Source: an uncultured Acidobacteriota bacterium
GTDB lineage: Bacteria > Acidobacteriota > Thermoanaerobaculia > Multivoradales > UBA5704
Reading direction: 5' to 3'
Length of the DNA: 64,000 bases
Assembly (NCBI GenBank): GCA_963770895.1
Contig: CAVYRF010000001.1
Coordinates: forward strand, 1,376,001 to 1,440,000
Below, in pieces: positions 40,584-63,109 of the stretch (the stretch's first letter is position 1; each line of letters starts with the position of its first letter). Both the position numbers and the translations under genes were made by a program. The notes under the pieces are model-generated. The model did no database searches, had not been told where the DNA came from, and worked only from the letters and a program-made list of their open reading frames with translations.

Positions 40584-40799
40584 ATGAAAATCAGCGCCCG
40601 CAATCAACTGCCCGGCAAGGTCACCAGCGTGCAGCTGGGAGCCGTGATGGCCGAAGTCACCGTCGACATCGGCGGCGGCAACTCCCTGGTATCCGCCATC
40701 ACCCGCGGCTCGGCCGAGTCGCTGGACCTGCGAGAAGGCGCCCCGGTGGTGGTCATCATCAAGGCCACCGAAGTCCTCATCGGCCGCGAGGACCAGTAG
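40584..40799 (+). CDS. Molybdenum-binding Mop/TOBE domain protein
   Basis: MKISARNQLPGKV, SAITRGSAESLDL, IIKATEV. Confidence 0.9.
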   Translation: MKISARNQLPGKVTSVQLGAVMAEVTVDIGGGNSLVSAITRGSAESLDLREGAPVVVIIKATEVLIGREDQ

Positions 40800-41982
40800 C
40801 CGATCCCTGCCGCCCACGCCGCCCATGCCGGCCGCGGGCGCGCGCGGCGGTTGTCCGCCGCCGCGCCGGCCGCGCCCCCCGCGACCGCCGCGCCGGCGAT
40901 TCCGGCGCGGGCAATCCCTCCAGCAAGGCCAGCGTCTGCGCTTCCAGCTGCGGCAGGATCGCTCCCGCCGCCCCCTCCGTCGCCGCCGCGACCGCCGAGG
41001 CGACCGGCTTGCCGTGCAGCCTGCCCTCCAGGAACGCGGCGATCACGCCCGGATGGACGTAATACTTGCGGCAAATTGCCGGCCGATTGCCAAGCTGAGC
41101 GGCAACCCGCGCGATCGCCTCGTTGACCGCGTGGCGGGCGTCGCGCGGCCCGCCAGCCGCGTTGTCCGCGGCCTCGGCAGGATCGCCGCACATCGTCAGC
41201 AACGCCGCCAGCGCCAGCACCGTACCGCCCCAGGTGCGAAAATCCTTGGCCGTGAACTCTTCTCCGGTGGCTTCCCGCAGGTAGCCGTTGACGTCCGCCG
41301 AATCCACCCCCTGGCGTTCGCCGGCTTCGTCGACGTATTGAAACAGCTCGTGCCCCGGCAGCTCGCGGCAAGCCCGCACCACCCGCGCCACCCGGCGGTT
41401 GGAGATCGCCACGCTATGCTCCTTGCCGCTCTTGCCGCGGAACTGAAACCGCACCGTCGAGCCGCTCACCTCCACGTGCCGCGACCGCATCGTGGTCAGC
41501 CCGAACGAGCGGTTCTCGCGCGCGTACTCTTCGTTGCCCACCCGGATCAGCGTCGTTTCCAGCAACTTGACCACCAAGGCCAGCACCTTGTCGCGAGGCA
41601 ACCCCGGCAGCCCCAGATCCCGCTCCAGCCGCGCCCGCAACCGCGGCAGCGCCTCACCGAAAGCCACCATGCGGCCAAACTTCGTTTCGTCCCGCACCGT
41701 CCGCCAATCCGCATGGTACCGATACTGCTTCCGGCCCCGCGCGTCGCGCCCCGTCGCCTGCAAATGCCCATTCGCCACAGGACAGATCCAAACGTCCTGC
41801 CAAGCCGGCGGGATCGCCAGCGCCTGAATCCGCCGCCGCTCCGCCCGGTCGTGCAGCGGCCCTCCAGCCGCATCCACATAGCGAAAACCCTCACCCTGGC
41901 GGCGGCGCCGGATCCCCGGCCGGGCGTCCGACACATACCGCAGTCCCGCCGCCTTGGCGCTGCTCACAGGATCGATCACCAT
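40777..41982 (-). CDS. DNA topoisomerase IB (bacterial, poxvirus-like type)
   Basis: AGLRYVSD, IPPAWQDVWIC, GRDARGRKQYRYH, IRVGNEEY, FRGKSGK, TAKDFRTW, LGNRPAICRKYYVHP. Confidence 0.93.
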   Translation of the reverse strand: MVIDPVSSAKAAGLRYVSDARPGIRRRRQGEGFRYVDAAGGPLHDRAERRRIQALAIPPAWQDVWICPVANGHLQATGRDARGRKQYRYHADWRTVRDETKFGRMVAFGEALPRLRARLERDLGLPGLPRDKVLALVVKLLETTLIRVGNEEYARENRSFGLTTMRSRHVEVSGSTVRFQFRGKSGKEHSVAISNRRVARVVRACRELPGHELFQYVDEAGERQGVDSADVNGYLREATGEEFTAKDFRTWGGTVLALAALLTMCGDPAEAADNAAGGPRDARHAVNEAIARVAAQLGNRPAICRKYYVHPGVIAAFLEGRLHGKPVASAVAAATEGAAGAILPQLEAQTLALLEGLPAPESPARRSRGARPARRRTTAARARGRHGRRGRQGSATGPRGR

Positions 41983-42109
41983 GCCGCCCCGCCCTTGCAC
42001 CCCGCGTGCCGCCCCCCGCGCAGATCGCGGCCGCGCCGTCAGGCGCGCTGCGATGGGCGCGACAGAACAGCCAGCCGGCCTGCCGGTGTGCTGGCGTAAA
42101 CTGTCTGCC

Positions 42110-43309
42110 TTGCTGAGGGAGACAGGCTTGGAGGGACAGGACCGCCAGGTGGGGGCAGGTGTGCCGGCGCGCCGCAAGGTGCTCATGGTGCAGGGTTCGC
42201 TGCAACCGCCGGGCGGCGGCAACGGGGTGGCCGCCTGGATCCTGCAGGCTCTCAGGGGGCGCTGCGAGCTGACGGTGGTGATGGTGGGCGCGGTCGATCT
42301 GCAAGCGGTCAATCGCCATTTCGGCACCACGCTGGCCGCGGACGACTTTACCGTGGTCACCGTGCGGTCCCTGGTCTGGCGGCTGCTCGACCGGCTGCCG
42401 CTGCGGCTCGCCCTGCTCAGGGGGCTGCTCCTGACGCGCCACGCGCGCCGGCTGGCTCCCGCTTTCGATGCAGTGGTGGGGGCGGCGGGCGAGACCGATC
42501 TGGGCGTGCCGGCCGTGCAGTACGTGCACTTCCCCTGGTCCTATCTGCCGCGCCCACCGCAGGACCTGGTCCACACGTACCACGTCGCCTGGCTGATCCG
42601 CCTCTACACCTGGGGCTGCGCCGTGCTCACCGGGTTCTCCTTCGCCCGCATGCGCCGCAATCTCACCCTGGCCAACTCGCGGTTTACCGCCCGGCATTTC
42701 GCCGCACGCCACGGCGTCGCAGCGGAGATCCTGCATCCGCCCACCATCGGCAGCTTCCCCAAGGTCGCCTGGAGCGACCGGGCCGACTCGTTCATCTGCA
42801 TCGGCCGCATCGCTCCCGAAAAGGAGCTGGAAAAGGTGATCGCCGTCCTCGCCGCGGTGCGGGAGCGCGGCCGGCCGGTCACCCTCACCCTGGCCGGCAT
42901 CGCCGACGATCCTGCCTACCACGCGCTCATCCGCGGGCTGGTGGCAGCGAACGCCTCATGGATGCGGCTGTGCGAGGACCTGCCGCGCGCCGAGCTCTGC
43001 CGGCTGGTCGCCGAGCACCGCTACGGCATCCACGGCATGCAGCGCGAGCACTTCGGCATGGCGGTCGCCGAGATGGTGCGCGCCGGCTGCATCGTCTTCG
43101 TGCCGCGCGAAGGCGGGCCGGCGGAGATCGTTGGCGAGGAGGATCTGCTGCTCTACGACGACGCGCCCGACGCCGTCGAAAAGATCCTGCGGGTCGCCGG
43201 CGACGCCGAGCTCCAGGCCGCCCTGTGCCGGCGTCTCGCCGTGCGCGGCCGCGAGCTCTCGACCGAGCATTTCGTCGCCCGCATCCGCGAGGTCTGCGGC
43301 GCCGCCTGA
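42110..43309 (+). CDS. GT4 glycosyltransferase, ALG11-like (putative alpha-1,2-mannosyltransferase)
   Basis: PPGGGNGVAAW, QYVHFP, ANSRFT, LHPP, IGRIAPEK, HGMQREHFGMAVAEMVRAG (EX7E); start uncertain (TTG 42110 or 42128). Confidence 0.8.
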   Translation: MLRETGLEGQDRQVGAGVPARRKVLMVQGSLQPPGGGNGVAAWILQALRGRCELTVVMVGAVDLQAVNRHFGTTLAADDFTVVTVRSLVWRLLDRLPLRLALLRGLLLTRHARRLAPAFDAVVGAAGETDLGVPAVQYVHFPWSYLPRPPQDLVHTYHVAWLIRLYTWGCAVLTGFSFARMRRNLTLANSRFTARHFAARHGVAAEILHPPTIGSFPKVAWSDRADSFICIGRIAPEKELEKVIAVLAAVRERGRPVTLTLAGIADDPAYHALIRGLVAANASWMRLCEDLPRAELCRLVAEHRYGIHGMQREHFGMAVAEMVRAGCIVFVPREGGPAEIVGEEDLLLYDDAPDAVEKILRVAGDAELQAALCRRLAVRGRELSTEHFVARIREVCGAA

Positions 43310-43312
43310 GCT

Positions 43313-44552
43313 TCAGGGGATGTCAGCCAGCTGGCGGATGCGGTGCTGGAAGCTTTCGACCGAAAGGTCCGGCAGGCCGGCGGCGAGGCTGCGGCGCAGG
43401 TCGGCGACCAGGCCGCATCGATCGGCCCCGTTGCCGCCATCGCTGCCGTCACCGTCGTGCTCGGCGGCGGCGAGCACGCGGCAGATCTTGTCGACGGCCT
43501 CTTGCACGGTGGCGAAGCGCAGGCGCGGGTCGCGCACGATGTCGCTCACGCCGCCGCGGTTGGGAGCGAAGACCAGGCAGCCGCCGGCGGCAAGCTCGGC
43601 GACCGCCATGCCGAACGGCTCGCGCGGGTTGGCGTGGATGGCGTAGCGATGGTGGGCGACCAGGGCGAGCAGGGCCGTACGCTCCAGATTGTGATGGACG
43701 GTGATCCAGGACGCATGGCGGGCAAACACCTCGCCGAGAGCGCGGGTGTGAGCCGGTGAGTCGTCCAGGGCGGCGATGGTCAGGCGCACGGCGTGGCCGC
43801 GGCGGCGCACCTCCTGCAGGATGGCGACGATGGTTTCGTAGCGCTTTTCCGGTGCCAGGCGGCCGATCGCCAGAAACGCGTCTGCGCGCTGTTCCCACGG
43901 CAGCCTTGGAAAGCTGCCGGCGAGCGGCGGATGGAGCACCTCCCGGCGGCGCGCCGGGGTGGCGGCGGGCGTAGACCTTGCCGGTCCAGCGCGAGTTGAC
44001 CAGGGTGACGTTGCGCCGCGTGCGGCGCATGGCAAAGCCGGTGACGGTGCCACAGGCCGCATGGTAGAGCGCGACGCGCAGCCAGCGCCCCCAGGGCCAG
44101 CGCGGGGCGGTGCGGTAGAAGCCGCGGTCGGCACTGGGGCGCGGCCACCAGGTCCAGGGAAAATGGACATATTGCAAGCCGGGACGGCGGCCCAGGTCGG
44201 CCTCGTCCTTGGCGGCGACCAGCAGGTCGTAGCCGCCGGCCAGGGCGCGCCCATGGCGGTAGAGCAGCAGCTGCTTGAGCATGATGAGAGGCGTGGGAGC
44301 GCTCGCCAGCAGGCGCCAGAGCCAGGAATCGGGCACGATCTCGCTCAGCTCGTGCGGCGCGAGCGCGGTGCCGAAGCTGCGGTTGATCGCCGCCAGGTCG
44401 GCCGGCTCGATCGACAGCAGGGCGAGATCGCAGCGCCCCGCCAGCGCCTGCAGCATCCAGGCGGCGACGGCGCTGCCGCCGCCCGGCGTGTGCAGCGACG
44501 GGTGGATGAACAGCACGCGGCGGCGGCGCGCACCTGCCGCGGCGCCGCTCAC
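43313..44552 (-). pseudogene. Second ALG11-like GT4 glycosyltransferase, split by a single +1 frameshift (real or sequencing error)
   Basis: N-half (GTG 44552: VLFIHPSLHTPGGGSAVAAW..YVHFP..VNSRWT) and C-half (EVLHPP..IGRLAPEK..HANPREPFGMAVAE) lie in different frames; span 1240 nt = 3n+1, shift at about 43942-43950. Confidence 0.75.
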
Positions 44553-46519
44553 CCGCGCGTTCCGGCGGGCGCGCCGGCCCCAGATCCGACTTCGGCCCCA
44601 GTCCCAGCCCCGGCGACGACGAGGGCGCGAAAGGTGGCGCTTCGCGCCAGCAGCTCGTCGTAAGGGCCGACCGCTTCGACGCGCCCTTCGCGCAGCAGCA
44701 CCAGGCGGTGGCAGCGCCGCACGGTGCTCAAGCGGTGCGCCACGATGACCAGGGTGCGGTCGCCGGATAGCGCCTCGATGGCGGCCGCCACCTCCTGTTC
44801 GGTGCGATTGTCGAGCGCCGCCGTGGCTTCGTCGAGCACCAGCACGCGCGGCTCGCCGTAGAGGGCGCGGGCGATGGCGACCCGCTGGCGCTCGCCGCCC
44901 GAAAGGCGCACGCCGCGCTCGCCGACGCGGGTGTCGAGACCGCCGGGCAGAGCGCTGACGAAGCGCTCGAGCTGCGCCAGGCGGATGGCGCGCCGCAGGC
45001 GGTCGGGGTCGATCTCGGCATCGGCGAGGCCGAAGGCGATGTTGCGGCGCAAGGTGTCGTCGGCGAGGTAGATGGCCTGCGGCACGTAGCCGATGCGGCG
45101 CTGCCAGGCGCGGCCGTCGTGCGCCAGGTCGACGCCGCCGGCCAGCACGCGGCCGGCGGTGGGGTGGAGCAGCGCCAGCAGGTGATCGACCAGGGTGCTC
45201 TTGCCGCTGCCGCTGGGGCCGACGATGCCGATCGCCTCGCCGGCCGGCAGGCGGAGGTTGATGTCGCAGAGCGCCGGGCGGTGCGCCGCCTCGTAGGTAA
45301 AGGTGACGTGCTCGAAGACCACCGCGTCGTGGCCGCTCGCCATCGTCGCCAGCGTTGCCATTGTCGCCATCGTCGCCAGCGGCTCCGCGGCCAGCGCGGC
45401 CGGTGGCGGCGGTGGCGACGCCGGGGCGGCAGCGGTCGGCGGCGCGGCCGGAGCGTCCGCGGCGGCCGGGGCGGCAGCGTCGCGGACGCGCGCCAGGTCG
45501 GCGGCGAGGCTGGCGGCGGCGGGGGCTTCGAAGCGCACGGTGTGCAGGTTGTAGACGACGCGGTGCGCCGAGGGCAGGATGCGGAAGCCGGCGTAGACCA
45601 GCAGCCCCAGCATCGGGATGCTGGCGCGCACGCTGCCGCCGGCGGCGGCGCCGGCGGGGGCGGTGACCGCGGCGGCGAAGACGATCGCCGCCATGCCGAG
45701 CACGAAGAGCGCCTCGACCAGCAGGCGCGGCACGGCCTCGGCGGTCACGCGCAGGGTCTGCAGGCGGGCGCGCGCGGTGCGCAGGCGCAGGAAGCGCTCG
45801 ACGAAGTGGCGCTCGCGCCCCAGAACCTTGACCTCCTTGACGCCGCCCAGGCCCTGGTTGAGCAGTCCGAGCTCGGCCAGCTCGATCTCGCGTGCCTCGC
45901 CGCCCCAGGTCTTGAACGCCTGCTGGGTAACGCGCAGGCCGCGCGCCAGGGCGAAGGTGACGACGATGCCGGCGGTGACCGCGGCGAGCGGCGCCTTCCA
46001 CAGCAGCACCGCGGCCATCGCCGCGATGTTCAGCGACTCAGAGAGCGCGACGGTGGCGGAAAGCAGCACCGAGCGGCAGGTGCGCTCCATCGATTCCTGG
46101 ATGGTATGGATCAGCTCGGCCGAATTGCGCCGCAGATGGAAGGCGTAGTCGGCGGCGAGGTAGCCGGCGAGCAGCTCGGCGGAGAGTGCCGCGATGGTGC
46201 CGTAGGCGAAGCGCGACTGCGCGTAGGCTTCGAGCGCCAGCAGGCTGTTCTTCAGCAGGTAGAAGGCGCCGACGAAGACGGCGAGGGCGGTGATCGCGGC
46301 ACGCTCGCCGGGGTGTCCGGAGAGCGCCGCGACGGAGCGTACCAGCGCCAGGTCGTGCGCCCGCGCCGGGTCGAGCAGCACGGTGACCAGCGACAGCACG
46401 GCGACGGCGCCGACCATCTCGAAGCTGGCGTTGAGCGTCGCCGTCGCCGCCAGGCCGGCCCACTGCCAGCGGGCGCGGCGCGGCAGGATGGCGAGGAGGT
46501 GATCCAGCGTCTCCTTCAT
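44549..46519 (-). CDS. ABC transporter ATP-binding/permease (PglK/WlaB-like putative lipid-linked glycan flippase)
   Basis: TM domain with YAFHLRRNSAEL, GGVKEVKV, PRLLVE, FRILPS; NBD GPSGSGKST, IGYVPQ, LSGGERQR, LDEATAALD; coupled to glycosyltransferases. Confidence 0.85.
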   Translation of the reverse strand: MKETLDHLLAILPRRARWQWAGLAATATLNASFEMVGAVAVLSLVTVLLDPARAHDLALVRSVAALSGHPGERAAITALAVFVGAFYLLKNSLLALEAYAQSRFAYGTIAALSAELLAGYLAADYAFHLRRNSAELIHTIQESMERTCRSVLLSATVALSESLNIAAMAAVLLWKAPLAAVTAGIVVTFALARGLRVTQQAFKTWGGEAREIELAELGLLNQGLGGVKEVKVLGRERHFVERFLRLRTARARLQTLRVTAEAVPRLLVEALFVLGMAAIVFAAAVTAPAGAAAGGSVRASIPMLGLLVYAGFRILPSAHRVVYNLHTVRFEAPAAASLAADLARVRDAAAPAAADAPAAPPTAAAPASPPPPPAALAAEPLATMATMATLATMASGHDAVVFEHVTFTYEAAHRPALCDINLRLPAGEAIGIVGPSGSGKSTLVDHLLALLHPTAGRVLAGGVDLAHDGRAWQRRIGYVPQAIYLADDTLRRNIAFGLADAEIDPDRLRRAIRLAQLERFVSALPGGLDTRVGERGVRLSGGERQRVAIARALYGEPRVLVLDEATAALDNRTEQEVAAAIEALSGDRTLVIVAHRLSTVRRCHRLVLLREGRVEAVGPYDELLARSATFRALVVAGAGTGAEVGSGAGAPAGTRG

Positions 46520-47738: not shown

Positions 47739-49055
47739 ATGCTTGGCGCGCGCTGCCGCGTGGTGATCGTTGTCCTGGGCGAGCTCGGGTACAGTTCGCG
47801 TATGTTTTATCACGCCCTCGCCCTGGGCGCCGCGGGGGCGGCGGTCCACCTGGTGGGGCTGGCCGGGGCGGACCTGCCGGCGGCGGTGTGCCAGCATCCC
47901 AATATCAAAGTGCATGAGCTGGGCGCACCCCCGCGGCCGGCGCCGCGGCGTCGGGCGTGGTCGCCGGTGGCGGCCGGGGCGCGAGCGCTGCGCCTGGGCG
48001 CGGCGCTGCTGTGGTGCCTGCTGGCACGGGTCGAGCGGCCGGATTTCGTGCTGGTGCAGACGCCGCCCGCGCTGCCGGCCCTGCTGGTGGCGCTGGTCGC
48101 GGCACGCTGGCGGGCGGCGGCGCTGGTCGTCGATTGGCACAACTTCGGCGACCGCATGCTCGCTCTGCGGCTGGGCGGCGGCCATCCGCTGGTGCGGTTT
48201 CTCGGCGCCTGGGAGCGCCGGCTGGGGCGCCGCGCCGACGCGCACTTCTGCGTCTCGGCGGCGATGCGCGCCGAGCTGGCGGCGCGGTGCCGCATCGCCG
48301 CGAGGGTGCTGCGCGACCTGCCGGCGGCGCGCTTCGCGCCCACCCCCGAGCCGCGGCGCGCCGAGCTGCGGCGGCGCGTCGCCGGCGTGGCGGGCGCGGC
48401 GGATGCGACCGGCTGGGTGGGCGGCGAGGCGGCGCAGGGCCAGGCGGTGCAGGGCGAGGCGGCGACGATCGCGGTGACGGCCACCAGCTGGTCGGCGGAC
48501 GAGGACCTGGCGCTGTTGCTGGCCGCCGCGGTGCGCTGCGAGGAGGCGCTGGTGCGGCGCGGCGCGGCGCCGCTGGTCCTGCTGGTCACCGGCCGGGGCG
48601 GCGCGGTGCAGGCGGAGTTCGAGCGGCGGGCGGCGGCCCTGGAGCTGACGCGGGTGCGCATCGTGACCGCCTGGCTGGCGGCGGACGAGTATCCGGCGAT
48701 GCTCGGCGCCGCGGACCTCGGGGTGTCGCTCCACCGCTCGGCCTCGGGGTGCGACCTGCCGATGAAGATCGCCGACATGTTCGGCGCCGGACTGCCGGTG
48801 TGTGCGTTCGACTACGGGCCCTGCCTGGCGGAGCTGGTGCGCGACGGCGAAAATGGCCGGCTGTTTCGCACCGCCGACGAGCTTGCCGCGTGCCTGCTGG
48901 CGCTGGCCGGCGGCGGCGCCGACGCGGCGGCGGCGCGCGCGGCGCTGCGTCCTGGGGTGGTGGCGGCGGCGCGGCGGCGGTGGCACGAGGAGTGGGCGGC
49001 GGTGGCGGCGCCGCTCTTCGCGCCCAGCGCGGCGCGGCGGCGCGGCGGCGGATGA
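47739..49055 (+). CDS. ALG1-like beta-1,4-mannosyltransferase (GT33)
   Basis: VVLGELGYSSRMFYHA, VQTPPALP, VDWHNFG, TSWSADEDL, VTGRG, WLAADEYPAMLGAADLGVSLHRSASGCDLPMKIADMFGAGLPV, ELVRDGENG. Confidence 0.88.
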   Translation: MLGARCRVVIVVLGELGYSSRMFYHALALGAAGAAVHLVGLAGADLPAAVCQHPNIKVHELGAPPRPAPRRRAWSPVAAGARALRLGAALLWCLLARVERPDFVLVQTPPALPALLVALVAARWRAAALVVDWHNFGDRMLALRLGGGHPLVRFLGAWERRLGRRADAHFCVSAAMRAELAARCRIAARVLRDLPAARFAPTPEPRRAELRRRVAGVAGAADATGWVGGEAAQGQAVQGEAATIAVTATSWSADEDLALLLAAAVRCEEALVRRGAAPLVLLVTGRGGAVQAEFERRAAALELTRVRIVTAWLAADEYPAMLGAADLGVSLHRSASGCDLPMKIADMFGAGLPVCAFDYGPCLAELVRDGENGRLFRTADELAACLLALAGGGADAAAARAALRPGVVAAARRRWHEEWAAVAAPLFAPSAARRRGGG

Positions 49056-50308
49056 GCGAGCCCTTTCCGGCGCGGCGCAACGCCCTGCGCATCGCCGTGC
49101 TGCATCCCGAGCTGACGGTTGGCGGCGCCGAGCGGGTGATGGTCGATGCCGCGGCGGCGCTGCAGGCGGCGGGGCACGCGGTCACCCTGTTCACCGCCCG
49201 GCTCGACCGGCAGCGGGCGTTCACCGAGGCCGTTGACGGCACGCTGCGGGTGCGGGTGGTGGCCGGCGGCTTGCTGCCCGGAGCGGTGGCGCAACGGCTG
49301 CGGGTGCCGTGCGCGGTGGCGCGCAGCCTGTGGCTGGCGGCGGCGGCCGCCGCCGCGGCGCGACGCGGCGGCTGGGACGCGGTGCTCTGCGACCAGGTGG
49401 CGCAGGCGGTGCCGCTGGCGCGGCGCTGGTGCCGGGCGCCGGTGGTCTTCTACTGCCACTTTCCGGATCGGCTGCTGGCGCCTGCCGGCGGGCGATTCTA
49501 CGGCTGGTACCGCGGTCCGCTCGACCGGCTGGAGGCGGCCGGCATGGCATGCGCCGATCGCGTGCTGGTCAACAGCCGCTTCACGGCAGCGGCCTTCCGC
49601 GGTGCTTTTCCGCATGCCGCGGCGCCGGCGGTGGTATATCCGGGGGTCGAAATCGCCGCGTGCAATCCGGCGCTCGCCACTGTGGCACAGGGCGGCGGAG
49701 CGGGTGGGCCGGCGACCATTCTTTCGCTGGCGCGCTTCGCGCCCGCCAAGGGGGTCGAGCTCGCGATCGACGCCCTGGCGGAGCTGCGCACGGCGGCGCC
49801 GGCTGCATTCGCCGGCTGCCGGCTGGTCCTCGCCGGCAGCTGCGACGAGCGGGTGCGCGAGCAGCGCGAGACGCGCGCGGCGCTCGCGGCGCGCTGCACG
49901 GCGCTGGGGCTGGACGGCCGGGTGGAGCTGCGCCCTTCGGTGGACGAAGCGGAGCGCCGGGCGCTGCTCGCCGGCTGCCGCTTCCTGGTCTATACGCCTG
50001 CCGCCGAGCACTTCGGCATGGTGCCGATCGAGGCCATGGCCGCAGGGCGGCCGGTCGTCGCCATCGCCGGCGGCGGGCCGGCGGAAACCGTCGTGGACGG
50101 CGAGACGGGCTACCTCTGCCCACCGGCGCCGGCGGCCCTCGCCGCGGCTTTCGCCCGGCTCCTAGATCGGCCCGATCTCGCCGCGCGCCTGGGCGCCGCC
50201 GGCCGCCGCCATGTCGAGCACCATTTTTCGCGGGCCGCCTTCGGCGCCGCGATCGAGGCGGCGCTTCAGCAGGCGGTGCGCGGTCGCGTGCAGCGGTACA
50301 GGGCGTAG
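49052..50308 (+). CDS. ALG2-like alpha-1,3/1,6-mannosyltransferase (GT4)
   Basis: LHPELTVGGAERVMVDAA, CDQV, FYCHFPDRLL, YRGPLDRLE, ADRVLVNSRFTA, LAGSCDERV, YTPAAEHFGMVPIEAM; ATGA-coupled to the ALG1-like gene. Confidence 0.88.
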   Translation: MSEPFPARRNALRIAVLHPELTVGGAERVMVDAAAALQAAGHAVTLFTARLDRQRAFTEAVDGTLRVRVVAGGLLPGAVAQRLRVPCAVARSLWLAAAAAAAARRGGWDAVLCDQVAQAVPLARRWCRAPVVFYCHFPDRLLAPAGGRFYGWYRGPLDRLEAAGMACADRVLVNSRFTAAAFRGAFPHAAAPAVVYPGVEIAACNPALATVAQGGGAGGPATILSLARFAPAKGVELAIDALAELRTAAPAAFAGCRLVLAGSCDERVREQRETRAALAARCTALGLDGRVELRPSVDEAERRALLAGCRFLVYTPAAEHFGMVPIEAMAAGRPVVAIAGGGPAETVVDGETGYLCPPAPAALAAAFARLLDRPDLAARLGAAGRRHVEHHFSRAAFGAAIEAALQQAVRGRVQRYRA

Positions 50309-52683: not shown

Positions 52684-52758
52684 GCCGACGTAGCTCAGCG
52701 GTAGAGCAGCTGATTCGTAATCAGCAGGTCATCGGTTCAATCCCGATCGTCGGCTCCA
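52684..52758 (+). tRNA. tRNA-Thr (anticodon CGT); integration target
   Basis: GCCGACG acceptor stem, GCTGA-TTCGTAA-TCAGC anticodon arm, GGTTCAATCCC T-arm, encoded CCA. Confidence 0.96.
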
Positions 52759-52826
52759 GCATAAGCCCAATTCTGTCAGCGATTTAACCCCTCTCCTTCG
52801 GGTCGCGTTATCGCGCGATTCGAGAT

Positions 52827-52848
52827 CTGACTCAGCACTGACTCAGCA
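52827..52848 (+). repeat. Two tandem CTGACTCAGCA repeats (left integrase arm-type sites)
   Basis: 11-bp unit x2, about 70 bp inside attL; the same unit occurs x3 near attR. Confidence 0.75.
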
Positions 52849-53034
52849 CGCGGAGCAGTTTCGTCGGCCGCGTGGAAAGGAGGGGATCGACCCAGCGGAA
52901 CAACCAGGCAGGCACCAGCCACGACCCACAGGCAGCCGGTCGGTTCCGGCACCGCCCCCCACAGATCTAACAGCGGCCTCGGCGAGAGTTGATGGCTCCC
53001 GCCGAAGCCTGACCAACGCAAAGGAAAACGCCCT

Positions 53035-53439
53035 ATGCGAGGCTCACCGCAGTCTACAACCCCGCCGCCCCCACCCTGGAACGCCGCCGATTCGTTCCGG
53101 GAAACAACCCTCATCTGCATTGACGATCCGGTGTCGCGCGAAGCCCTCCGTCAGGTCGGCCGGATGATCTACGAAATGGCGATCGTGACGGCCGAGTTCC
53201 CCAGCGACGAGTCCACCAGCCACGCGGAGATGCGCGCCGCCCTGGCCGAGCTGCGCTTCATTGAGGGGTTCTTCCTCTCGATGCACCAGGCGGCCGAGGA
53301 ATCGTGCCTCGATCCCCAGGAAGCCCGCCTTGCCCGCTTCGCCGGCAAGATGGCAGTGCAGGTAAGCGCAATCGTTGCCGCCGTCGAGCGCGAGTTGCGA
53401 CCGATCGCCAGTTGGCCCGGCGACAAGGCAGAGAGGTGA
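53035..53439 (+). CDS. Hypothetical protein (paralogue of 53562-53927)
   Basis: AAAGGA RBS; shares RM.Y..A, E.RAA.A.LR..EG, LARFAGK.A..V.AI...E..L with the next gene. Confidence 0.7.
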   Translation: MRGSPQSTTPPPPPWNAADSFRETTLICIDDPVSREALRQVGRMIYEMAIVTAEFPSDESTSHAEMRAALAELRFIEGFFLSMHQAAEESCLDPQEARLARFAGKMAVQVSAIVAAVERELRPIASWPGDKAER

Positions 53440-53561
53440 TCGCAGTCGAGTAGTCCAGAGACACGGAGGGGCGGCGCCGTGCCGCCCCGTTTCCCTAGAA
53501 GCGGCCCCGGCAAGAGGTGTGAACTCTCACCGGAGCCTAGTCACGCAAAGGAAACCGCCCA

Positions 53562-53927
53562 ATGCGCAACCGCCACAAATCTACCACCGCATCCGCCACC
53601 TGGACCGAGGCAGCCTCGATCCGGGAAACCACCATGCGCAGTATCGACGACGCGAAGGACCGGAAGGCGATCCGCCGTCTCAGCAGAATGCTCTACCTGT
53701 ACGCGCTGGAGACGACGCGCGGGCCTTTCACGGAGTCCCCAACCCGCGACGAACTGCGCGCCGCCGCCGCCGATCTCCGGTATCTCGAAGGCTACCTATC
53801 CATGACCGGCGATGCGCACAGCGCCTCATCGCTCCCGCCGCCGGATGACGACCTGGCCCGGTTCGCCGGCAAGCTCGCCGGGAAGGTCGGCGCCATCGCG
53901 GAGTCGATCGAAGGGAGGCTGTCATGA
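53562..53927 (+). CDS. Hypothetical protein (paralogue of 53035-53439)
   Basis: AAAGGA RBS; same motifs; ATGA-coupled to the downstream HTH gene. Confidence 0.7.
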   Translation: MRNRHKSTTASATWTEAASIRETTMRSIDDAKDRKAIRRLSRMLYLYALETTRGPFTESPTRDELRAAAADLRYLEGYLSMTGDAHSASSLPPPDDDLARFAGKLAGKVGAIAESIEGRLS

Positions 53928-54223
53928 CCACTGGCCGTCACCCGGACGCCGAGCGGTCGCGCCAGGCGCTTTGCCGTCTCGTTGGGTTGGCAGGGGTAAG
54001 CCGCGTTGAGATGTCCCGCCGCCTCCAAGGCCGGGGCTTCTCATGCGACGTGCAGCGCGCTCTAACCGGCAGGACCGACCTGCGGTTGTGGCAGGTGCTG
54101 GCGATCGTAGAAGCGGTGGACATGGCGCCCGCCGAGTTCTTCCGCATGGTGTTCAAGGCGCCCAAGGAGCCCAGCCCGTTTCGGCGGCAGCTTGAAATTG
54201 TAGCGACCACGCTTCACGAGTAG
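53924..54223 (+). CDS. Putative XRE/Cro-like HTH protein
   Basis: GVSRVEMSRRL...VQRALTGRTDLRLWQVLAIVEAVDMAPAEFF pattern. Confidence 0.55.
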   Translation: MTTGRHPDAERSRQALCRLVGLAGVSRVEMSRRLQGRGFSCDVQRALTGRTDLRLWQVLAIVEAVDMAPAEFFRMVFKAPKEPSPFRRQLEIVATTLHE

Positions 54224-54365
54224 GCGAGAAGGACCACCGCAAGACACCCCCCGCGCCAACGTCACCGACGCTAAACCGTCAAACCGTCCGGGCCTGTGAA
54301 GCAGAGCACAGGCCCGGACTTCTCGCCTTAGCGCTAACGCCATACATGATCATATCTGCATAAGC

Positions 54366-55049
54366 TTGCGCCTTAAGGCAGTGAGGCATAGCCTTACGTT
54401 GGTGCCAAAGTCAGCTGTGCGGATCGCGCTAGCCGTAGGCTGCGGACTTGTGCTCGCTCTCGTCGTTGCCTTTGCGGGCTGCGTCCTATTTCTCCGACAC
54501 GAGGTAAGAAAACAGGCTGATACCACTCGCAAAGTTGCCCAGCATCAACTTGCCGAACTTCAGGAGCAGGTTCGCACACGCCAGAACGAACTAGACTCCA
54601 AGCTGACTGCGTGGCATGAGGCGCCGCTAAAATCGAGCATGGACGGTTCGACCGGCATTGGGATAGCGCACTTTGCGTCGAATGAAATCGCCGGCTGGTT
54701 GGAGCATTCTAGGCCACTGCTGAGCATCGGATGCACTGAGCACAAAACACGTTTATTTGTTGTCACCGGAATGAACGCCCAGCCTGAGCTTGCATTGTAC
54801 GAACGATATACAGTCCGACTCAGGCTTGACCAGGGTAGGCCAGAGCGCCAAGAATGGAGCCAAGGCACTGACGGCAAGCTGCTGTTTGCGCCTAACCCCA
54901 TCCTGCTAGCCAAACAGCTCGCAAAAGCTCAATTACTGCGCTTTGAGTTTACGCCATTCAACGCCACCAGTCAGGTAGCCGAATTCAACCTTGCCGGTCT
55001 AAAGGATCATCTCTCCAAGGTCGCCGCCGCTTGCGGATGGCAACTGTAG
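54366..55049 (+). CDS. Membrane-anchored protein with VasI/TagO-like domain
   Basis: TM helix and coiled coil; W..SSMDGS, LSIGCTEHKT, VRLRLD, WSQGTDGKLLF, FEFTPFN..AEFNLAGL; start uncertain. Confidence 0.55.
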   Translation: MRLKAVRHSLTLVPKSAVRIALAVGCGLVLALVVAFAGCVLFLRHEVRKQADTTRKVAQHQLAELQEQVRTRQNELDSKLTAWHEAPLKSSMDGSTGIGIAHFASNEIAGWLEHSRPLLSIGCTEHKTRLFVVTGMNAQPELALYERYTVRLRLDQGRPERQEWSQGTDGKLLFAPNPILLAKQLAKAQLLRFEFTPFNATSQVAEFNLAGLKDHLSKVAAACGWQL

Positions 55050-55065
55050 ATCGTCGAGCAATAAC

Positions 55066-55800
55066 ATGGAACCGGCCGGGCATATTCAATTGCAACCATC
55101 TCGGCTTTCAGCATTCATGATGAATCCGAGCAATTCACGTTCACGCGAGCACATTCTTACAACTCGGGCGATATACGATCTCTCGCTAGCGGCAGCGGCT
55201 AGCGGCTATCATCTCCAAACATACAGTCCGGTAGTTGACCGCGACGGCTTCGACCTCATTATAGACGACCACGACTCTATCGTTCCACTCCAGCTAAAGT
55301 CGAGAGCCGGGAGCCAGAGCAGATGGTCGGTGCATCGGAAGCTTCTTCGGCCACAGCGCCGCGACTGTGAACTGTTCGGGTTTGAGGAGAGTCCTGAGGG
55401 AGAGGGGCTCGGCGGAGGAGTTCTACTTGCGCACATAGAGCCGCATGACAGCGCACTCGACGTAACGTATTACTACACCGATGTCCATATCCTAACTGCC
55501 CTATGGCAACGAGTTGTCGATCGCAACCGCTCAGAAGATGTGGCACTCCGCAGATTGCAAATTGATCTCTCAGCCGACGTTGCCGGCTTTGTGGCTCTAC
55601 CTAAGGCTGCATTCGTCCGGGCCAATTCTCCTGACGCAGTGCTAGCCTTGGCTGGTTTGCATAGCCGCTACAACATGGCATGGCGTCTCAATATTAGGCG
55701 CCTTGCTGGGTCTGCCAACCGAGGCGAACCATTAGATTTACCGGAAGGTCGCCTGCGCTCCACAATCGCTGCCGAGTTGGCTGCGATGCAACGCCCGTGA
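55066..55800 (+). CDS. Hypothetical protein with PD-(D/E)xK-like nuclease motif
   Basis: SREH..., VDRDGFDLIID...VPLQLKS (D...QxK variant); island cargo. Confidence 0.5.
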   Translation: MEPAGHIQLQPSRLSAFMMNPSNSRSREHILTTRAIYDLSLAAAASGYHLQTYSPVVDRDGFDLIIDDHDSIVPLQLKSRAGSQSRWSVHRKLLRPQRRDCELFGFEESPEGEGLGGGVLLAHIEPHDSALDVTYYYTDVHILTALWQRVVDRNRSEDVALRRLQIDLSADVAGFVALPKAAFVRANSPDAVLALAGLHSRYNMAWRLNIRRLAGSANRGEPLDLPEGRLRSTIAAELAAMQRP

Positions 55801-55965
55801 CTTTCCGGTGCTGGTGCGGGGCGATACTTTGGGGTAACGCCGAATTGCCGGCTATTGGGCTCGCGTAGTGGGCGCCGGCCCATAGACCCAGAGCGATACC
55901 ACCATAGGCTTGTGCCGGTGGCGATGCCGCGCATAGCCTCAAGGGAGGTTCCTGGAGACTGCACT

Positions 55966-56475
55966 ATGGATCGTAAGGCGCTCCCTCGATCTCTCGCCCT
56001 CTTTGTCGCCGTCGCCTCTCTTGCCCTACCGTGCGCAGCACAAAAGCCCGCACAGCCCGCGCCGCAGGCAGCCCAACAGTTAGGGTTTGGTAAGTGGCAG
56101 GTTCTCAGTGAGGGGGCCGTTTTCATACAGCGCGGTACGCTTGCCTTGGTCCTAACGGTGGGCCAGATTAGGCAGGCTCCGGTCGGCACCGCCTACATTG
56201 TAGACCGACTGTCCGATGTGCCTAACAGCCGCCAGCGGGATTTGTCGGGGTGTCCCCAGCGTCTCCGCGTTGACTCGAATCCGGCGCTAGCGATTGGGAT
56301 CGGCGCCGGGTCCGTCACAGACGGACGCGTGCTACTGCGTGAAATGCTCGCCGGGAACTCGCTGACTGCGGAGTATTGCATTTGGCCCAACCATCGGCCG
56401 GCCCATTCCACTTTCGAGCTAAAAGGCTTCGCGCAAGCGTGGCACGCAGCCGGTGGGCGTGAACCGAAATCGTAG
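55966..56475 (+). CDS. Hypothetical secreted protein
   Basis: GGAG RBS; signal peptide MDRKALPRSLALFVAVASLALPCAA. Confidence 0.55.
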   Translation: MDRKALPRSLALFVAVASLALPCAAQKPAQPAPQAAQQLGFGKWQVLSEGAVFIQRGTLALVLTVGQIRQAPVGTAYIVDRLSDVPNSRQRDLSGCPQRLRVDSNPALAIGIGAGSVTDGRVLLREMLAGNSLTAEYCIWPNHRPAHSTFELKGFAQAWHAAGGREPKS

Positions 56476-56549
56476 GTCCGCCTCAATGGCAAGACTACCC
56501 AATAGATATCTGTTGTTTGTAGATTTGGGCGCCGAAATGGGAGACAGGA

Positions 56550-56924
56550 ATGAAAAAGGCCACTCTCACGCCTCTCACGCTGCTGATTTTCCAACTCAAC
56601 CACCTTCTCGACACGGGTCGCTACGACAGGATCACATTCCAGGAGGTGACTTCTCGAATCGAAGATGGATCCATCCTCCATTTCCTCAAGGAACGCGCAG
56701 GCGAAGATGTAGACCTCAGCGCGCATCTTGAGGGCGGTCTTATGCATGGCAAGTTCGAGCACTTCTACGTGCCGTATTTGCAATCGTTCCTCAACGCCGA
56801 GGATTTCCAGCGCAAGTGGCTTGTACAAAACCGGGGGCTGTGCCTGCTTATCGCGATGACCAACGAGATTGTCCAGCAAGGCAGTGGTTGGTCCTCCTCG
56901 ACCGACGTTGCTGGTGTGGAATAG
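56550..56924 (+). CDS. Hypothetical protein
   Basis: GGAGACAGGA RBS, 124 aa, co-oriented with other cargo genes. Confidence 0.55.
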   Translation: MKKATLTPLTLLIFQLNHLLDTGRYDRITFQEVTSRIEDGSILHFLKERAGEDVDLSAHLEGGLMHGKFEHFYVPYLQSFLNAEDFQRKWLVQNRGLCLLIAMTNEIVQQGSGWSSSTDVAGVE

Positions 56925-56967
56925 CGCGCCGTGCGCAGCAGGTCAGAGGTCAACGCCACGATCAGAT

Positions 56968-57045
56968 GCGCTCAGCCGCGGTCACACCAAGGCCGCCGCC
57001 GCCGGCCTGGCTGGCGTGAGTGAAGTGGTGCGCGTATAAGCGAGC
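56968..57045 (+). repeat. Left arm of a perfect 78-bp inverted repeat
   Basis: Exact reverse complement of 58435-58512. Confidence 0.95.
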
Positions 57046-57331
57046 TTCCGAAGATCCCGACTTTGCGGAGCAGAAATGGATAGCATGCCCACCGGGGAAC
57101 AGCGGCGCTGATGACGGTGGCGTTTGAGAGGATTACCGATCGAGTGCCCGAGCGACAGGATTGCTCGCGGTGTGAATTCGAGACAGGCCATAGAGCACAC
57201 CCGGCATGCTGATGGACCGATCGCGAGTCCGAAGACGATACCGATTGACAGATTGACAGGCTATCGCTTGAGACGAGACGCCGCTTGCTGGCAGAGCTGG
57301 CGGCAATTGAGCGTGATAATTTGGCACCTCC

Positions 57332-57359
57332 TTGATTGGGGGGTAAGCTGCGGTATAAT
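57332..57359 (+). promoter_or_regulatory. Promoter for the gene inside the inverted repeats
   Basis: TTGATT, 16 nt, TATAAT. Confidence 0.5.
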
Positions 57360-57528
57360 GAGATCGGCTATGCCGGCCTTGGCTGCCAGGAAAATGCTCC
57401 GACGAAGGCTCATCGCGCAAAGCACCATCGGCCAGAGGCAAATGACATCGCCTCCTTCTAGGCACACATCGCACTTTCGATCATCTCTTATGTCCACCCG
57501 ATAAAACGACACCAGATTGAGGTTACAC

Positions 57529-58293
57529 ATGCCGACTTGCTTCGTAATTCAACCATTCGACTCGGGGAAATTTGACAAGCGCTATTTTGATATCTATGAG
57601 CCTGCGATCAATGCGTCGAACTTGGAAGCATATAGAGTTGACCTCGACCCCTCCGTAGAAGTACCAATCGAAGCTATCGAAGACGGCATCCGGGCCGCCG
57701 CCATCTGCCTGGCCGACATCACTACCGACAATCCGAATGTCTGGTATGAGCTGGGGTACGCATTTGCGGCTGGGCGCCCAGTAGTCATGATCTGCTCGGA
57801 GGAGCGAAAGGACAAGAAGTATCCATTTGACATTCAGCACCGGACGGTCATTCGCTACAAGCCAGATGCTCCAAGTGATTTTGCAGCACTACAGATCGCC
57901 ATTACAGAACGGCTGCGTGCGAAACTCAACAAGGCGCAGGCACTTCGTCAGATAATTGAGTCTGAGCAAGTGGCCCCCACGCAAGGCCTGAGTCAGCCAG
58001 AGCTCATGGTGCTAGCAGAGCTCGCTGGTGACACACCCATCCCTGGCGCCATTGTCGCCGTATCCTCCTTGAAGCACTCATCGGAAGGAGCGGGGCTCAC
58101 CGCGATAGGCTTTTCGCTTGCACACAGACGGTTGGTGGCGAAGGGCATGGTTGAGCGCGTAGATGGTCAGGACGAGCGCGGCGACTACTACGACGCCAGT
58201 AGGCTGACTGAGCAGGGCTGGAGTTGGATCGACACAAATGAATCACTATTTGTTCTCCGGCGCCCCGAACCTGGTGATGACATCCATTTCTAA
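57529..58293 (+). CDS. Nucleoside 2-deoxyribosyltransferase/TIR-like domain protein with C-terminal winged-helix-like region
   Basis: MPTCFVIQPF, AYRVD, IEDGIRAAAICLADITTDNPNVWYELGYAFAAGRPVVMI, YPFDIQHRTVIRY. Confidence 0.75.
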   Translation: MPTCFVIQPFDSGKFDKRYFDIYEPAINASNLEAYRVDLDPSVEVPIEAIEDGIRAAAICLADITTDNPNVWYELGYAFAAGRPVVMICSEERKDKKYPFDIQHRTVIRYKPDAPSDFAALQIAITERLRAKLNKAQALRQIIESEQVAPTQGLSQPELMVLAELAGDTPIPGAIVAVSSLKHSSEGAGLTAIGFSLAHRRLVAKGMVERVDGQDERGDYYDASRLTEQGWSWIDTNESLFVLRRPEPGDDIHF

Positions 58294-58434
58294 TTGGGGG
58301 AGCAAGGACCCGGAGCGGGAGCTGAGCCGCAAAGCGACTGTGGTCAATGGCCGCAGCCGCCGGCATGCCCTTCCTGCTGTTCTGCTGTTCAGCGCTAAGC
58401 AATACCGCCGTATGACAACTCGGAGTCTTCGGCC

Positions 58435-58512
58435 GCTCGCTTATACGCGCACCACTTCACTCACGCCAGCCAGGCCGGCGGCGGCGGCCTTGGTGTGACC
58501 GCGGCTGAGCGC
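58435..58512 (-). repeat. Right arm of a perfect 78-bp inverted repeat
   Basis: Exact reverse complement of 56968-57045. Confidence 0.95.
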
Positions 58513-58646
58513 GTCGAAGTAGGCGGGGATTCCCATTCGGCCCCCGCGTTGGCGCAGGCCAGTGACAGCTGTTGCGCCAGTGCCACAACGTGCTTACGTA
58601 ATATCGCGTTGCGACACATCGTGAGAAGGCGCCGTCTGTACAAAAG

Positions 58647-58757
58647 CCGTCCACGGTTGAGGCGACAGCGCGAGAGACGTGGTGACGCTGGACGGATGGA
58701 CGGATCTCTACACTACTCGCTTCCTGGCCCATCTGGACGGATGGACGACCCGGACGG
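58647..58757. repeat. Octamer iterons (consensus nTGGACGG), putative replication origin
   Basis: Copies at 58688, 58696, 58733, 58741, 58750, one inverted at 58647; three more inverted copies at 59906-59929. Confidence 0.6.
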
Positions 58758-60017: not shown

Positions 60018-60130
60018 GGTGACACCGCCTTTTCCGACAGACGATGCGGCGCTCGTTTGTTGTTCATGGGTCTATCACCCGGTGACCCGGCACTTGGCAC
60101 CATAGAGTAGCCGACGCTGCGCTTGCCCTG

Positions 60131-60406
60131 CTAAGACCGGCGAGCATTTGCACCTCTCGCAATCTGTCGGGACGATCGCGGTAGACTTGCGCTTTGTGTA
60201 TCGGAAGTAGAGTGCCGCTCTTGCTCGGCCATAAACTTCTCGATGGCTTCTCGTCGGTAAATCACACGACGCCCGAGTTTCACGAAGGTAGGGCCTTTGC
60301 CGTTCAGGCGCCACGCTTCTAAAGTTTGTCTCTTTAACCGCAGATACGTCGCCGCTTCCTCCGTGGTGATGTTGTCGTTCAGTATGTTCACTTGCGTTCT
60401 CTCCAT
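60131..60406 (-). CDS. AlpA/excisionase-like HTH_17 DNA-binding protein
   Basis: ITTEEAATYLRLKRQTLEAWRLNGKGPTFVKLGRRVIYRREAIEKF; start at 60406 or GTG 60391. Confidence 0.85.
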   Translation of the reverse strand: MERTQVNILNDNITTEEAATYLRLKRQTLEAWRLNGKGPTFVKLGRRVIYRREAIEKFMAEQERHSTSDTQSASLPRSSRQIARGANARRS

Positions 60407-60567
60407 TCTGAGCGTTCCCGCGTCTGGCAGGACTTGACGGGGCATAGGAGAGCATGCGCATTGGATGAGCAGCGAGGCTAGCTCATCCAGATTCTTTGCG
60501 AGGAAAGAGGGGCGGCGGCCAGCCTCTTGTCCGCGAGGTTCCCGAGGCAGGGAAGGAGAGGGGGGAG

Positions 60568-61466: not shown

Positions 61467-61477
61467 CGGTCGGCTCC

Positions 61478-61753: not shown

Positions 61754-61829
61754 CCCGTCCCTAGCTTAGGAGAGTCCATCCTGGGTGTCAATCGTGCCTT
61801 TACAGTTTCGCTGGACCGTTGCGGGGGGC

Positions 61830-63038: not shown

Positions 63039-63076
63039 GGCTGCATCCTCCTGTCCGGGTCCGCCGATCTCGCCTG

Positions 63077-63109
63077 CTGACTCAGCGCTGACTCAGCACC
63101 GACTCAGCA
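63077..63109 (+). repeat. Three tandem C(T/C)GACTCAGC(A/G) repeats (right integrase arm-type sites)
   Basis: Copies at 63077, 63088, 63099, between the int start and attR. Confidence 0.75.

Follow-up and report, generated by a model that had tools for sequence, protein, structure and literature searches.

In this study, we analysed a 64,000-nt stretch of DNA (hereafter the window) from an uncultured Acidobacteriota bacterium (assembly GCA_963770895.1, contig CAVYRF010000001.1, positions 1,376,001 to 1,440,000). The window carries a gene for an ALG2-like mannosyltransferase of glycosyltransferase family GT4 (protein P0001), the start of which overlaps the end of an ALG1-like gene. In eukaryotes, ALG1 and ALG2 assemble the mannose core of N-glycans. 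We believe, with a probability of about 0.68, that the ALG2-like enzyme adds α-mannose to the product of the overlapping ALG1-like enzyme, and that both belong to a shared pathway for a lipid-linked glycan. In support of a shared pathway, an ALG1-like gene accompanies the ALG2-like gene in 29 of 41 loci with close relatives and in 0 of 39 loci with distant GT4 enzymes. An earlier note on this DNA, made from the letters alone, had suggested such a pathway; the gene overlap and the clade-specific linkage to ALG1-like genes support it, with the activities predicted by homology. The note had also proposed counting how often the two genes are adjacent in bacteria. Among the close loci, 16 have an ALG1-like gene immediately upstream of the ALG2-like gene and in the same orientation.

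Coding evidence and motifs of the ALG2-like gene

The host is a soil-type bacterium. The GC content of the window is 69%, and it is 75% across 42.2-52.7 kb. Many long open reading frames (ORFs) overlap on both strands, and the protein collection listed no entry 100% identical to P0001. Both points would fit a chance open frame in DNA of 76% GC, an explanation that the coding evidence has already refuted. The GC content at third codon positions (GC3) is 0.885 in the ALG2-like gene and 0.93 in the ALG1-like gene, the codon-position GC fits the frame, and where the two genes meet, the frame shown by the GC3 plot changes at exactly that point. Pfam recognises both GT4 halves in P0001, with a best match at the 1e-31 level: the N-terminal Glyco_transf_4 domain (PF13439, 1.3e-18, residues 23-201) and the C-terminal Glycos_transf_1 domain (PF00534, 3.3e-31, residues 218-386). 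This is the two-domain GT-B architecture. The AlphaFold model has a GT-B fold with a predicted local distance difference test score (pLDDT) of 91.7, and Foldseek aligned it with solved GT4 enzymes at template modelling (TM) scores of 0.7-0.77. Given the GC3 pattern, the Pfam domains and the tblastn homologues in 41 loci, the frame is coding and not a product of chance. As a side observation, the collection does list a 100%-identical entry for the neighbouring DUF6077 gene (P0123) and none for the ALG1-like or ALG2-like ORF; the recorded gene calls for the 78% GC stretch 47739-50308 may differ from the ORFs analysed here.

The earlier note had listed seven ALG2 motifs, and all seven were located in P0001. 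The first is HPELTVGGAERVMVDAA (residues 18-34), followed by DQV (114-116), FYCHFPDRLL (133-142), YRGPLDRLE (153-161), VNSRFT (173-178) and AGSCDERV (261-268); the seventh is YTPAAEHFGMVPIEAM (residues 314-329). The motif columns are invariant or nearly so in a 23-member family alignment, with threonine 22 (T22) as the sole exception. The published signature motifs of ALG2 are G-I-G-G-A-E-R and E-H-F-G-I-V-P-L-E (10.1101/2025.10.15.682550). In the first, the GGAER core of P0001 is intact: G24, G25 and R28 are identical in 109/109 aligned sequences, E27 in 108/109 and A26 in 104/109. In the second, the EX7E motif, E319, G322 and E327 are identical in 121/121 aligned sequences, and V324 is matched in 107/121.

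Family placement of P0001

In a large protein collection, 8000 candidates were scored for P0001, of which 537 had E <= 0.001 and 120 were listed. The listed homologues are 45-58% identical to P0001, apart from one partial sequence at 95%. The sole specific source name among the 120 is 'alpha-1,3/alpha-1,6-mannosyltransferase', an automatic label; the NCBI rows among them (Binatia, Acidobacteria, Deltaproteobacteria) are named just 'glycosyltransferase'. In the ESM Atlas, where cluster names are automatic labels without an underlying alignment, a bacterial 'ALG2 family' cluster ranked first for P0001, and eukaryotic (arthropod) ALG2 clusters ranked second and third at 0.99. The eukaryotic ALG2 clusters stand above the other bacterial GT4 clusters.

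One genome per prokaryote species was scanned with a pattern from the 23-sequence alignment, which gave 80 loci. These comprise 41 close loci with 42-55% identity and 39 distant GT4 loci. The close loci come from 40 assemblies, as L022 and L025 belong to the same assembly. The hosts of the close loci are Binatia, Rokubacteria/Methylomirabilota, Acidobacteriota, Myxococcota, Nitrospira and two Gammaproteobacteria. A quick IQ-TREE analysis used 50 rows of near full-length matches in a single high-scoring segment pair, with one row dropped for low coverage; besides P0001, the rows came from the prokaryote loci only, with 34 sequences from the close group (41 loci) and 15 from the distant group (39 loci). 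P0001 is nested with the 34 close sequences in a 35-row clade (Shimodaira-Hasegawa-like approximate likelihood ratio test support 90) and is sister to a Binatia sequence (91). Beyond a branch with support 99 stand 13 distant GT4 sequences. The other two distant rows, which have long branches, stand next to the clade in an unresolved position. Identity falls from 42-58% within the close clade to at most 34% over the full length for other GT4 enzymes. The homologue names, the Atlas and the tree thus agree with the ALG2-like identity that the earlier note had given the gene. The evidence supports the ORF at 49052-50308 as a member, by descent, of the bacterial ALG2-like clade.

Bacterial ALG2 is a kind already known from one preprint, so this gene does not represent a new one. 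Using BLAST with the human proteins, Xu et al. (bioRxiv, 2025) found 3,676 bacterial ALG2 homologues and 204 ALG1 homologues (10.1101/2025.10.15.682550). In the bacterial sample of that preprint, the bacterial ALG2 homologues group with eukaryotic ALG2. Those from Gammaproteobacteria and Polyangia complement a yeast alg2-delta strain and make Man2- and Man3GlcNAc2 in vitro, and a deltaproteobacterial homologue does so weakly (10.1101/2025.10.15.682550).

The ALG1-like gene and its junction with the ALG2-like gene

Judged by its sequence, the upstream gene at 47739-49055 is of the ALG1/GT33 type and distinct from ordinary GT4 enzymes. The sole specific source name among its 120 listed homologues is 'beta-1,4-mannosyltransferase', again an automatic label. 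The gene is single-copy in its own genome, with no paralogue at 1e-5, and the PDB search gave no relative of the protein at E <= 0.01. ALG1 homologues from Gammaproteobacteria, Polyangia and Binatia complement a yeast alg1-delta strain, and the Man1GlcNAc2 that they form is extended by human ALG2 (10.1101/2025.10.15.682550). In the accessible part of Lombard 2016, the origin of Alg1 is given as unknown and gene context is not treated (PMC4973528). In two of the listed homologues, the metagenome proteins P0167 and P0211 of ~760 amino acids, a phosphosugar transferase domain of the WecA/ALG7 family (PF00953, residues 87-239) is naturally fused to an ALG1-like domain (~378-744), which speaks for lipid-linked chemistry.

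The two genes meet in an ATGA overlap, which had been pointed out before and is present in the sequence. Its ATG opens the ALG2-like ORF, and its TGA closes the ALG1-like ORF in another frame. The two genes are presumably co-transcribed, and the overlap alone would suggest that they are translationally coupled. A sequence scan gave no terminator-like site at the junction, although such a scan is uninformative in DNA of 75% GC.

Gene neighbourhoods of the related loci

Genes in the 80 loci were counted by tblastn with the window proteins; because contig ends cut many loci, the numbers given for the close group are minimum values. An ALG1-like gene was looked for within 10 kb; of the 20 close loci with full 10-kb flanks, 15 carry it. 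A MurG-like GT28 gene was present in 23/41 close loci (13/20 with full flanks), a relative of the further GT4 gene of the window (GT4a) in 20/41 (12/20), a PF00953 (WecA/MraY/ALG7-family) transferase gene in 15/41 (8/20) and an STT3/AglB-type gene in 25/41 (14/20). All four were found in 0/39 distant loci. For GT4a, a 21st match was a cross-match onto the ALG2-like gene. An ATP-binding cassette (ABC) exporter gene was counted in 23/41 close loci (14/20) and in 7/39 distant ones. DUF6077 was found in 0/41, 0/20 and 0/39, respectively. In 13 loci, the ALG1-like, GT28, ABC exporter, STT3 and ALG2-like genes occur together, and 8 of these also have PF00953. The GT28 relatives are divergent from the ALG1-like gene in close loci, as in the window.

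The junction of the two ALG genes is tight in the 16 loci that share their order, where the in-frame start nearest the stop was chosen, a choice that favours short gaps. The genes overlap by 4 nt in three loci, 8 nt in three and 1 nt in one; they are separated by 1-3 nt in three, 18 nt in four, 36 nt in one and 108 nt in one. An overlap or a gap of at most 36 nt is therefore found in 15/16. A fused ALG1-ALG2 ORF in L012, L014, L017 and L043 was considered and ruled out by a stop codon and an 18-nt gap.

Pfam searches of representative ORFs of the related loci recognised the STT3 N-terminal domain with the AglB/PglB core, PF00953, and ABC_membrane with ABC_tran. The motif WWDYG, a mark of STT3-family transferases in agreement with PDB titles, is present in 19/26 STT3-like ORFs of these loci. 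The ABC protein PglK flips lipid-linked oligosaccharide, a role that also agrees with PDB titles. Read with this knowledge of the families, the related loci would be gene sets that make, flip and transfer GlcNAc2-Man(n)-PP-lipid (GlcNAc, N-acetylglucosamine; Man, mannose; PP, pyrophosphate) to protein. MurG and Alg13/14 both add β-1,4-GlcNAc to a lipid-linked sugar (PMC8993221). STT3-type genes beside ALG1-/ALG2-like genes were seen in L012, L015-L017, L024-L027, L030-L032, L043, L047, L049 and others, and the STT3/AglB-type genes fall into two length classes of ~770 and ~980 amino acids. The cluster is sparse: the ALG1-like profile matched 3/61 genomes sampled from the phylum of L015, the genome of L015 itself included. 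A literature search found no paper describing synteny of an ALG1-/ALG2-like cluster.

The gene cluster in the window

The ALG pair lies in a cluster of glycan genes (Table 1) in a genome of 8.16 Mb on 3 contigs that is 95% complete.

Table 1. Positions of the features of the glycan cluster in the window.
Feature	Start	End	Strand	Remarks
GT4a, further GT4 glycosyltransferase gene	42173	43309	+	PF00534 at 2.4e-10; start approximate
GT4b, GT4a paralogue split over two frames	43313	44516	-	tblastn with GT4a-type proteins
ABC exporter gene, transmembrane domain and ATPase	44549	46519	-	Pfam ABC_membrane, ABC_tran
GT28 gene, MurG paralogue	46516	47664	-	PF03033, PF04101; MurG structures at 1.7e-48
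Divergent intergenic region GT28/ALG1-like	47665	47738	.	74 bp; presumed promoters; from start-codon coordinates
ALG1-like (GT33-type) β-1,4-mannosyltransferase gene	47739	49055	+	438 amino acids; ATG at 47739 most plausible start
ATGA start/stop overlap, ALG1-like/ALG2-like	49052	49055	+	read directly
ALG2-like GT4 mannosyltransferase gene (P0001)	49052	50308	+	418 amino acids; Pfam, homologues, ESM Atlas, tree, AlphaFold model
G-rich loop HPELTVGGAER	49103	49135	+	T22 codon ACG at 49115-49117; family has Gly
EX7E motif EHFGMVPIE (E319-E327)	50006	50032	+	V324 kept; read from sequence; motif as quoted in preprint
DUF6077 membrane protein gene, predicted GT-C fold	50266	52446	-	726 amino acids on record; PF19554 at 2.6e-22
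tRNA-Thr(CGT)	52684	52758	+	ARAGORN; right-hand cluster edge

The GT28 protein retains a GGTAGH loop and may be the second GlcNAc transferase of the pathway. The second GT28 of the genome (37% identity) is on contig 2, ~3 kb from a PF00953 gene, and we regard this pair as the housekeeping genes murG and mraY. The PDB matches of the ABC exporter include the lipid-linked-oligosaccharide flippase PglK at 9.6e-62, by the ATPase part only, which makes the exporter a candidate flippase for the lipid-linked glycan. A second ATGA overlap lies at 46516-46519 (- strand), where the exporter ATG at 46519 falls on the GT28 stop. The cluster is thus made up of two compact gene pairs that diverge from each other. 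The 74-bp gap between them showed no sigma-70 consensus, in a scan that is likewise uninformative in 75% GC DNA.

The GT4a ORF opens at 41954, and its homologues align from 42173. GT4a was considered as an ALG11, which is unsupported: the Atlas places it closest to clusters of bacterial and archaeal GT4 enzymes, none named ALG11. By tblastn, frame -3 encodes the N-terminal half of GT4b (44516-43959) and frame -1 its C-terminal half (44014-43328); in the GC3 plot, the frame shifts near 43900. GT4b, which is tail to tail with GT4a and split near 43940-44014, is either a frameshifted pseudogene or the result of a sequencing error.

Two observations concern the edges. On the left, a bacterial type IB topoisomerase gene (40777-42360, - strand; Pfam 'eukaryotic DNA topoisomerase I catalytic core' and Top1B_N_bact) adjoins the cluster, and its DNA in relatives matches other contigs, not the uvrC neighbourhood. 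On the right, a 10.5-kb low-GC island (52706-63262, GC 0.603) is inserted at the tRNA-Thr, with the glycan cluster just outside it. A second copy of the final 53 nt of the tRNA (52706-52758) lies at 63210-63262 with 98% identity, and the island carries genes for a tyrosine integrase (61830-63038, - strand), a VasI-like protein (54366-55049) and a DUF3631 protein (58713-60017).

The DUF6077 protein

The gene after the ALG2-like gene encodes a DUF6077 protein. Its ORF is open to 52665 and is convergent with the ALG2-like gene, the two sharing 43 nt at their 3' ends. This place and orientation are those of the shorter STT3 type in most of the 12 related loci that have this type (among them L015, L024 and L031). 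An AlphaFold model from a 27-sequence alignment has a pLDDT of 85.5, a predicted TM score of 0.89 and a GT-C fold. Foldseek gave probability 1.0 to ArnT, DPY19 and STT3, with TM scores of 0.3-0.4. In VIA-align, the model matched yeast STT3 with Z 16.1 (451 residues, root-mean-square deviation 4.9), AglB with 14.4, AftD with 13.3, and ArnT and PglB with 11.9 each; Z values up to ~13 are common for helical bundles. By this model, the protein belongs to the GT-C glycosyltransferase superfamily. An RPDxDD motif stands early in the alignment (R197, P198, D201 and D202 do not vary among the 27 sequences), and this acidic motif would sit in the first outside loop.

DUF6077 as a diverged form of the cluster oligosaccharyltransferase was considered and rejected. 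It shares with STT3/AglB/PglB and ArnT the overall GT-C fold with a C-terminal periplasmic domain; with the cluster oligosaccharyltransferase, it has nothing but the fold in common. Unlike STT3/AglB/PglB, it lacks the WWDxG motif, and profile-profile comparison with the cluster STT3 family gave no similarity (hhalign probability 7.8%). A PDB sequence search gave no match at E <= 1, and a literature search found no paper mentioning DUF6077. We read the protein, from its model, as a GT-C enzyme that may act on the flipped lipid-linked glycan.

Distribution and origin

The ALG1-like gene was found in 0/9 other genomes of the same genus, in 0/15 others of the same family and in 2/16 of the same order, at 49-52% identity. 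The ALG2-like gene was found in 0/40 of these relatives at E <= 1e-50, with candidate scoring incomplete in many genomes. The cluster has a GC content of 0.750, and the remaining upstream part of the window one of 0.700. The nearest ALG2-like sequences, both in the homologue list and in the tree, are from Binatia. When the flanks were compared with five relatives, uvrC upstream alone was collinear and no clean insertion site was definable. Horizontal acquisition is likely because the pair was not found in the 24 same-family genomes. The cluster as a whole was probably acquired in this way. On a 25.6-kb metagenome contig, the ALG2-like protein is 95% and the DUF6077 protein 92% identical to those of the window.

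Substitution in the glycine-rich loop and alternative explanations

Several observations weigh against a working ALG2 in a shared pathway. The first concerns the glycine-rich loop (G-loop) of P0001, L-T-V-G-G-A-E-R, where threonine replaces the first glycine of G-I-G-G-A-E-R. The T22 column is covered by 109 of the 121 aligned sequences, with G in 105, T in 2 (P0001 and P0074), H in 1 and R in 1. Glycine is also present at the equivalent site in 35/35 loci where the pattern located the motif (of the 41 close loci). The 95%-identical metagenome relative begins at residue 89 and is thus silent on T22. A Gly-to-Ala change at this first glycine (human G25, GaALG2 G20) abolishes activity in vitro, and altering the second tested glycine or the EX7E valine lowers ALG2 activity (10.1101/2025.10.15.682550). 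Mainly because of this threonine, full ALG2 activity is not assumed here, and without the first glycine the gene is filed as an ALG2-clade member by descent and not as a proven functional ALG2.

The cluster and its relatives add further points. A search for PF02516 (STT3) gave no match in the own genome, where control genomes do match. PF00953 is absent from the cluster, and both genome copies are on contig 2. Together with the GT4b frameshift, these gaps make the cluster look partly eroded or remodelled. In a same-order genome, locus L095 (G026:C11:45000-64999) has PF00953, ABC exporter, ALG1-like, GT4a and STT3 genes, while a search at E <= 1e-50 revealed no ALG2-like gene there or elsewhere in the genome. 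This means that an ALG1-like enzyme is not always in need of an ALG2-like partner.

These points would suit an enzyme that descends from the ALG2 clade and is dead, weakened or re-specialised (for a single mannose or another acceptor), in an acquired N-glycosylation locus that is being remodelled or is decaying. T22 at a glycine whose alanine mutant is inactive in two ALG2 enzymes, the frameshifted GT4b, the missing STT3 and PF00953 genes, and DUF6077 in the place of STT3 all speak for it. However, the remaining cluster genes are intact ORFs with GC3 of 0.88-0.94, and both ATGA overlaps are kept. The 25.6-kb metagenome contig retains the ALG2-like and DUF6077 proteins, three other homologues are naturally non-Gly at this site (T, H, R), and the published mutation is to Ala, not Thr. 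On balance, we regard a dead or altered enzyme as unlikely, though it deserves to be taken seriously.

Other points bear on whether P0001 is an ALG2 relative at all. No NCBIfam model reached its cut-off for P0001; the best, EpsE, scored 100 bits against a cut-off of 400. The PDB search gave generic GT4 relatives only (best 2.9e-16) and no ALG2 structure; the nearest solved structures are HepE, MshA, BshA and PimB'. The overlap between the tested proteins of the preprint, GaALG2 (Gammaproteobacteria), PoALG2 (Polyangia) and DeALG2, and our close loci is one of taxon names. The link from the P0001 clade to eukaryotic ALG2 would come from the Atlas, the source names and the preprint's tree. Such generic Pfam and NCBIfam matches and structures, along with at least 14 other GT4-like matches in the own genome, are what an ordinary exopolysaccharide or O-antigen GT4 enzyme would give, with a general resemblance to ALG2 and an acceptor unrelated to the ALG1-like product. 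Yet the sharp drop in identity outside the close clade, the conserved ALG2-specific motif columns, the Atlas ranking of eukaryotic ALG2 above other bacterial GT4 clusters and the clade-specific ALG1-like linkage all make an ordinary GT4 quite improbable. We keep to the reading that the ALG2-like enzyme probably works on the ALG1-like product.

Proposed pathway and its significance

We infer every step of the pathway in this organism, its Man3GlcNAc2 product included, from homology and gene context. A WecA/ALG7-type transferase encoded elsewhere in the genome would form GlcNAc-PP-undecaprenol. The GT28 protein of the cluster would add the second GlcNAc, and the ALG1-like enzyme a β-mannose. The ALG2-like protein is predicted to be a cytoplasmic, membrane-associated GT-B/GT4 enzyme that uses GDP-mannose. 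Its acceptor would be the Man-β1,4-GlcNAc2-PP-polyprenol made by the ALG1-like enzyme, to which it may add one or two α-mannoses. GT4a may extend the glycan, the ABC exporter would flip it across the membrane, and the DUF6077 GT-C protein may use it in the periplasm.

The preprint treats bacterial ALG1 and ALG2 as isolated genes with their native role open, and the words 'operon', 'gene cluster', 'neighbor' and 'synten' do not occur in its text (10.1101/2025.10.15.682550). The synteny described here supplies a context: in related bacteria, the two genes are accompanied by those for a putative chitobiose-forming MurG paralogue, an initiating transferase, a flippase and a canonical oligosaccharyltransferase. 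It predicts eukaryote-like N-glycans with a GlcNAc2-Man core in bacteria, and it bears on the origin of the cytosolic half of the eukaryotic N-glycan pathway. So far as we found, three things are unreported: the cluster with an oligosaccharyltransferase, its DUF6077 variant, and a natural threonine at a reportedly essential glycine. The window copy joins ALG genes to an unstudied GT-C family instead of an oligosaccharyltransferase. It also lies in a large, near-complete genome and not in a fragmentary metagenome bin, and may be easier to study.

We offer one wider proposal, tentatively. In bacteria of at least six phylum-level groups, one mobile cluster might encode the whole of a eukaryote-style N-glycan pathway and be the native source of eukaryotic ALG1 and ALG2. 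In the window copy, which would be a transferred one, the oligosaccharyltransferase might have been replaced by the new GT-C family DUF6077, passing the oligomannose glycan to a different acceptor. With similar caution, the six groups might be Binatota, Methylomirabilota, Acidobacteriota, Myxococcota, Nitrospirota and Pseudomonadota. The parts of such a cluster could be, if this somewhat doubtful picture is right, an ALG7-type initiator, a transferase of the MurG/ALG13-14 type for the second GlcNAc, ALG1, ALG2, a further GT4 enzyme, an ABC flippase and a WWDYG oligosaccharyltransferase.

Comparison with known systems

The nearest known counterparts of P0001 are the bacterial ALG2 proteins of the preprint. 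The taxa common to the preprint and our close loci are Gammaproteobacteria, Polyangia, Deltaproteobacteria and Methylomirabilota, and Binatia for the ALG1 homologue only. P0001 is of the same length class as these proteins and has no N-terminal extension, and both share the EX7E motif with Val and the GGAER core. Residues G20, G22 and V317 there correspond to T22, G24 and V324 in P0001. In the preprint's sample, the bacterial ALG2 proteins are paired with ALG1 homologues that make the acceptor, like the pair in the window. P0001 differs in having Thr for the first G-loop Gly, and the closest sampled relatives of its host are without the pair.

Compared with the eukaryotic ALG2 of yeast and human, the motif pattern is alike, the eukaryotic enzyme acts after ALG1, and of the named Atlas clusters outside bacteria, those of eukaryotic ALG2 come nearest to P0001. 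In contrast, the P0001 model is a bare GT-B fold, with no hydrophobic extensions apparent that would anchor it in the endoplasmic reticulum membrane. Its lipid would be undecaprenol and not dolichol, T22 is substituted, and the gene is in a presumed operon and not dispersed.

The Campylobacter pgl locus encodes the GT4 enzymes PglA, PglJ and PglH, the ABC flippase PglK and the oligosaccharyltransferase PglB. PglA, PglK and PglB appear among the PDB matches of the cluster proteins. An STT3/PglB homologue was not found in the window's own genome, which sets it apart from the pgl system. The ALG1/ALG2- and MurG-type enzymes would predict a GlcNAc2-Man core and not the bacillosamine-GalNAc heptasaccharide of Campylobacter. 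In general plan, the related loci are like pgl: GT4 enzymes would build the glycan in the cytoplasm, an ABC protein would flip it, and a WWDYG STT3-family enzyme would transfer it.

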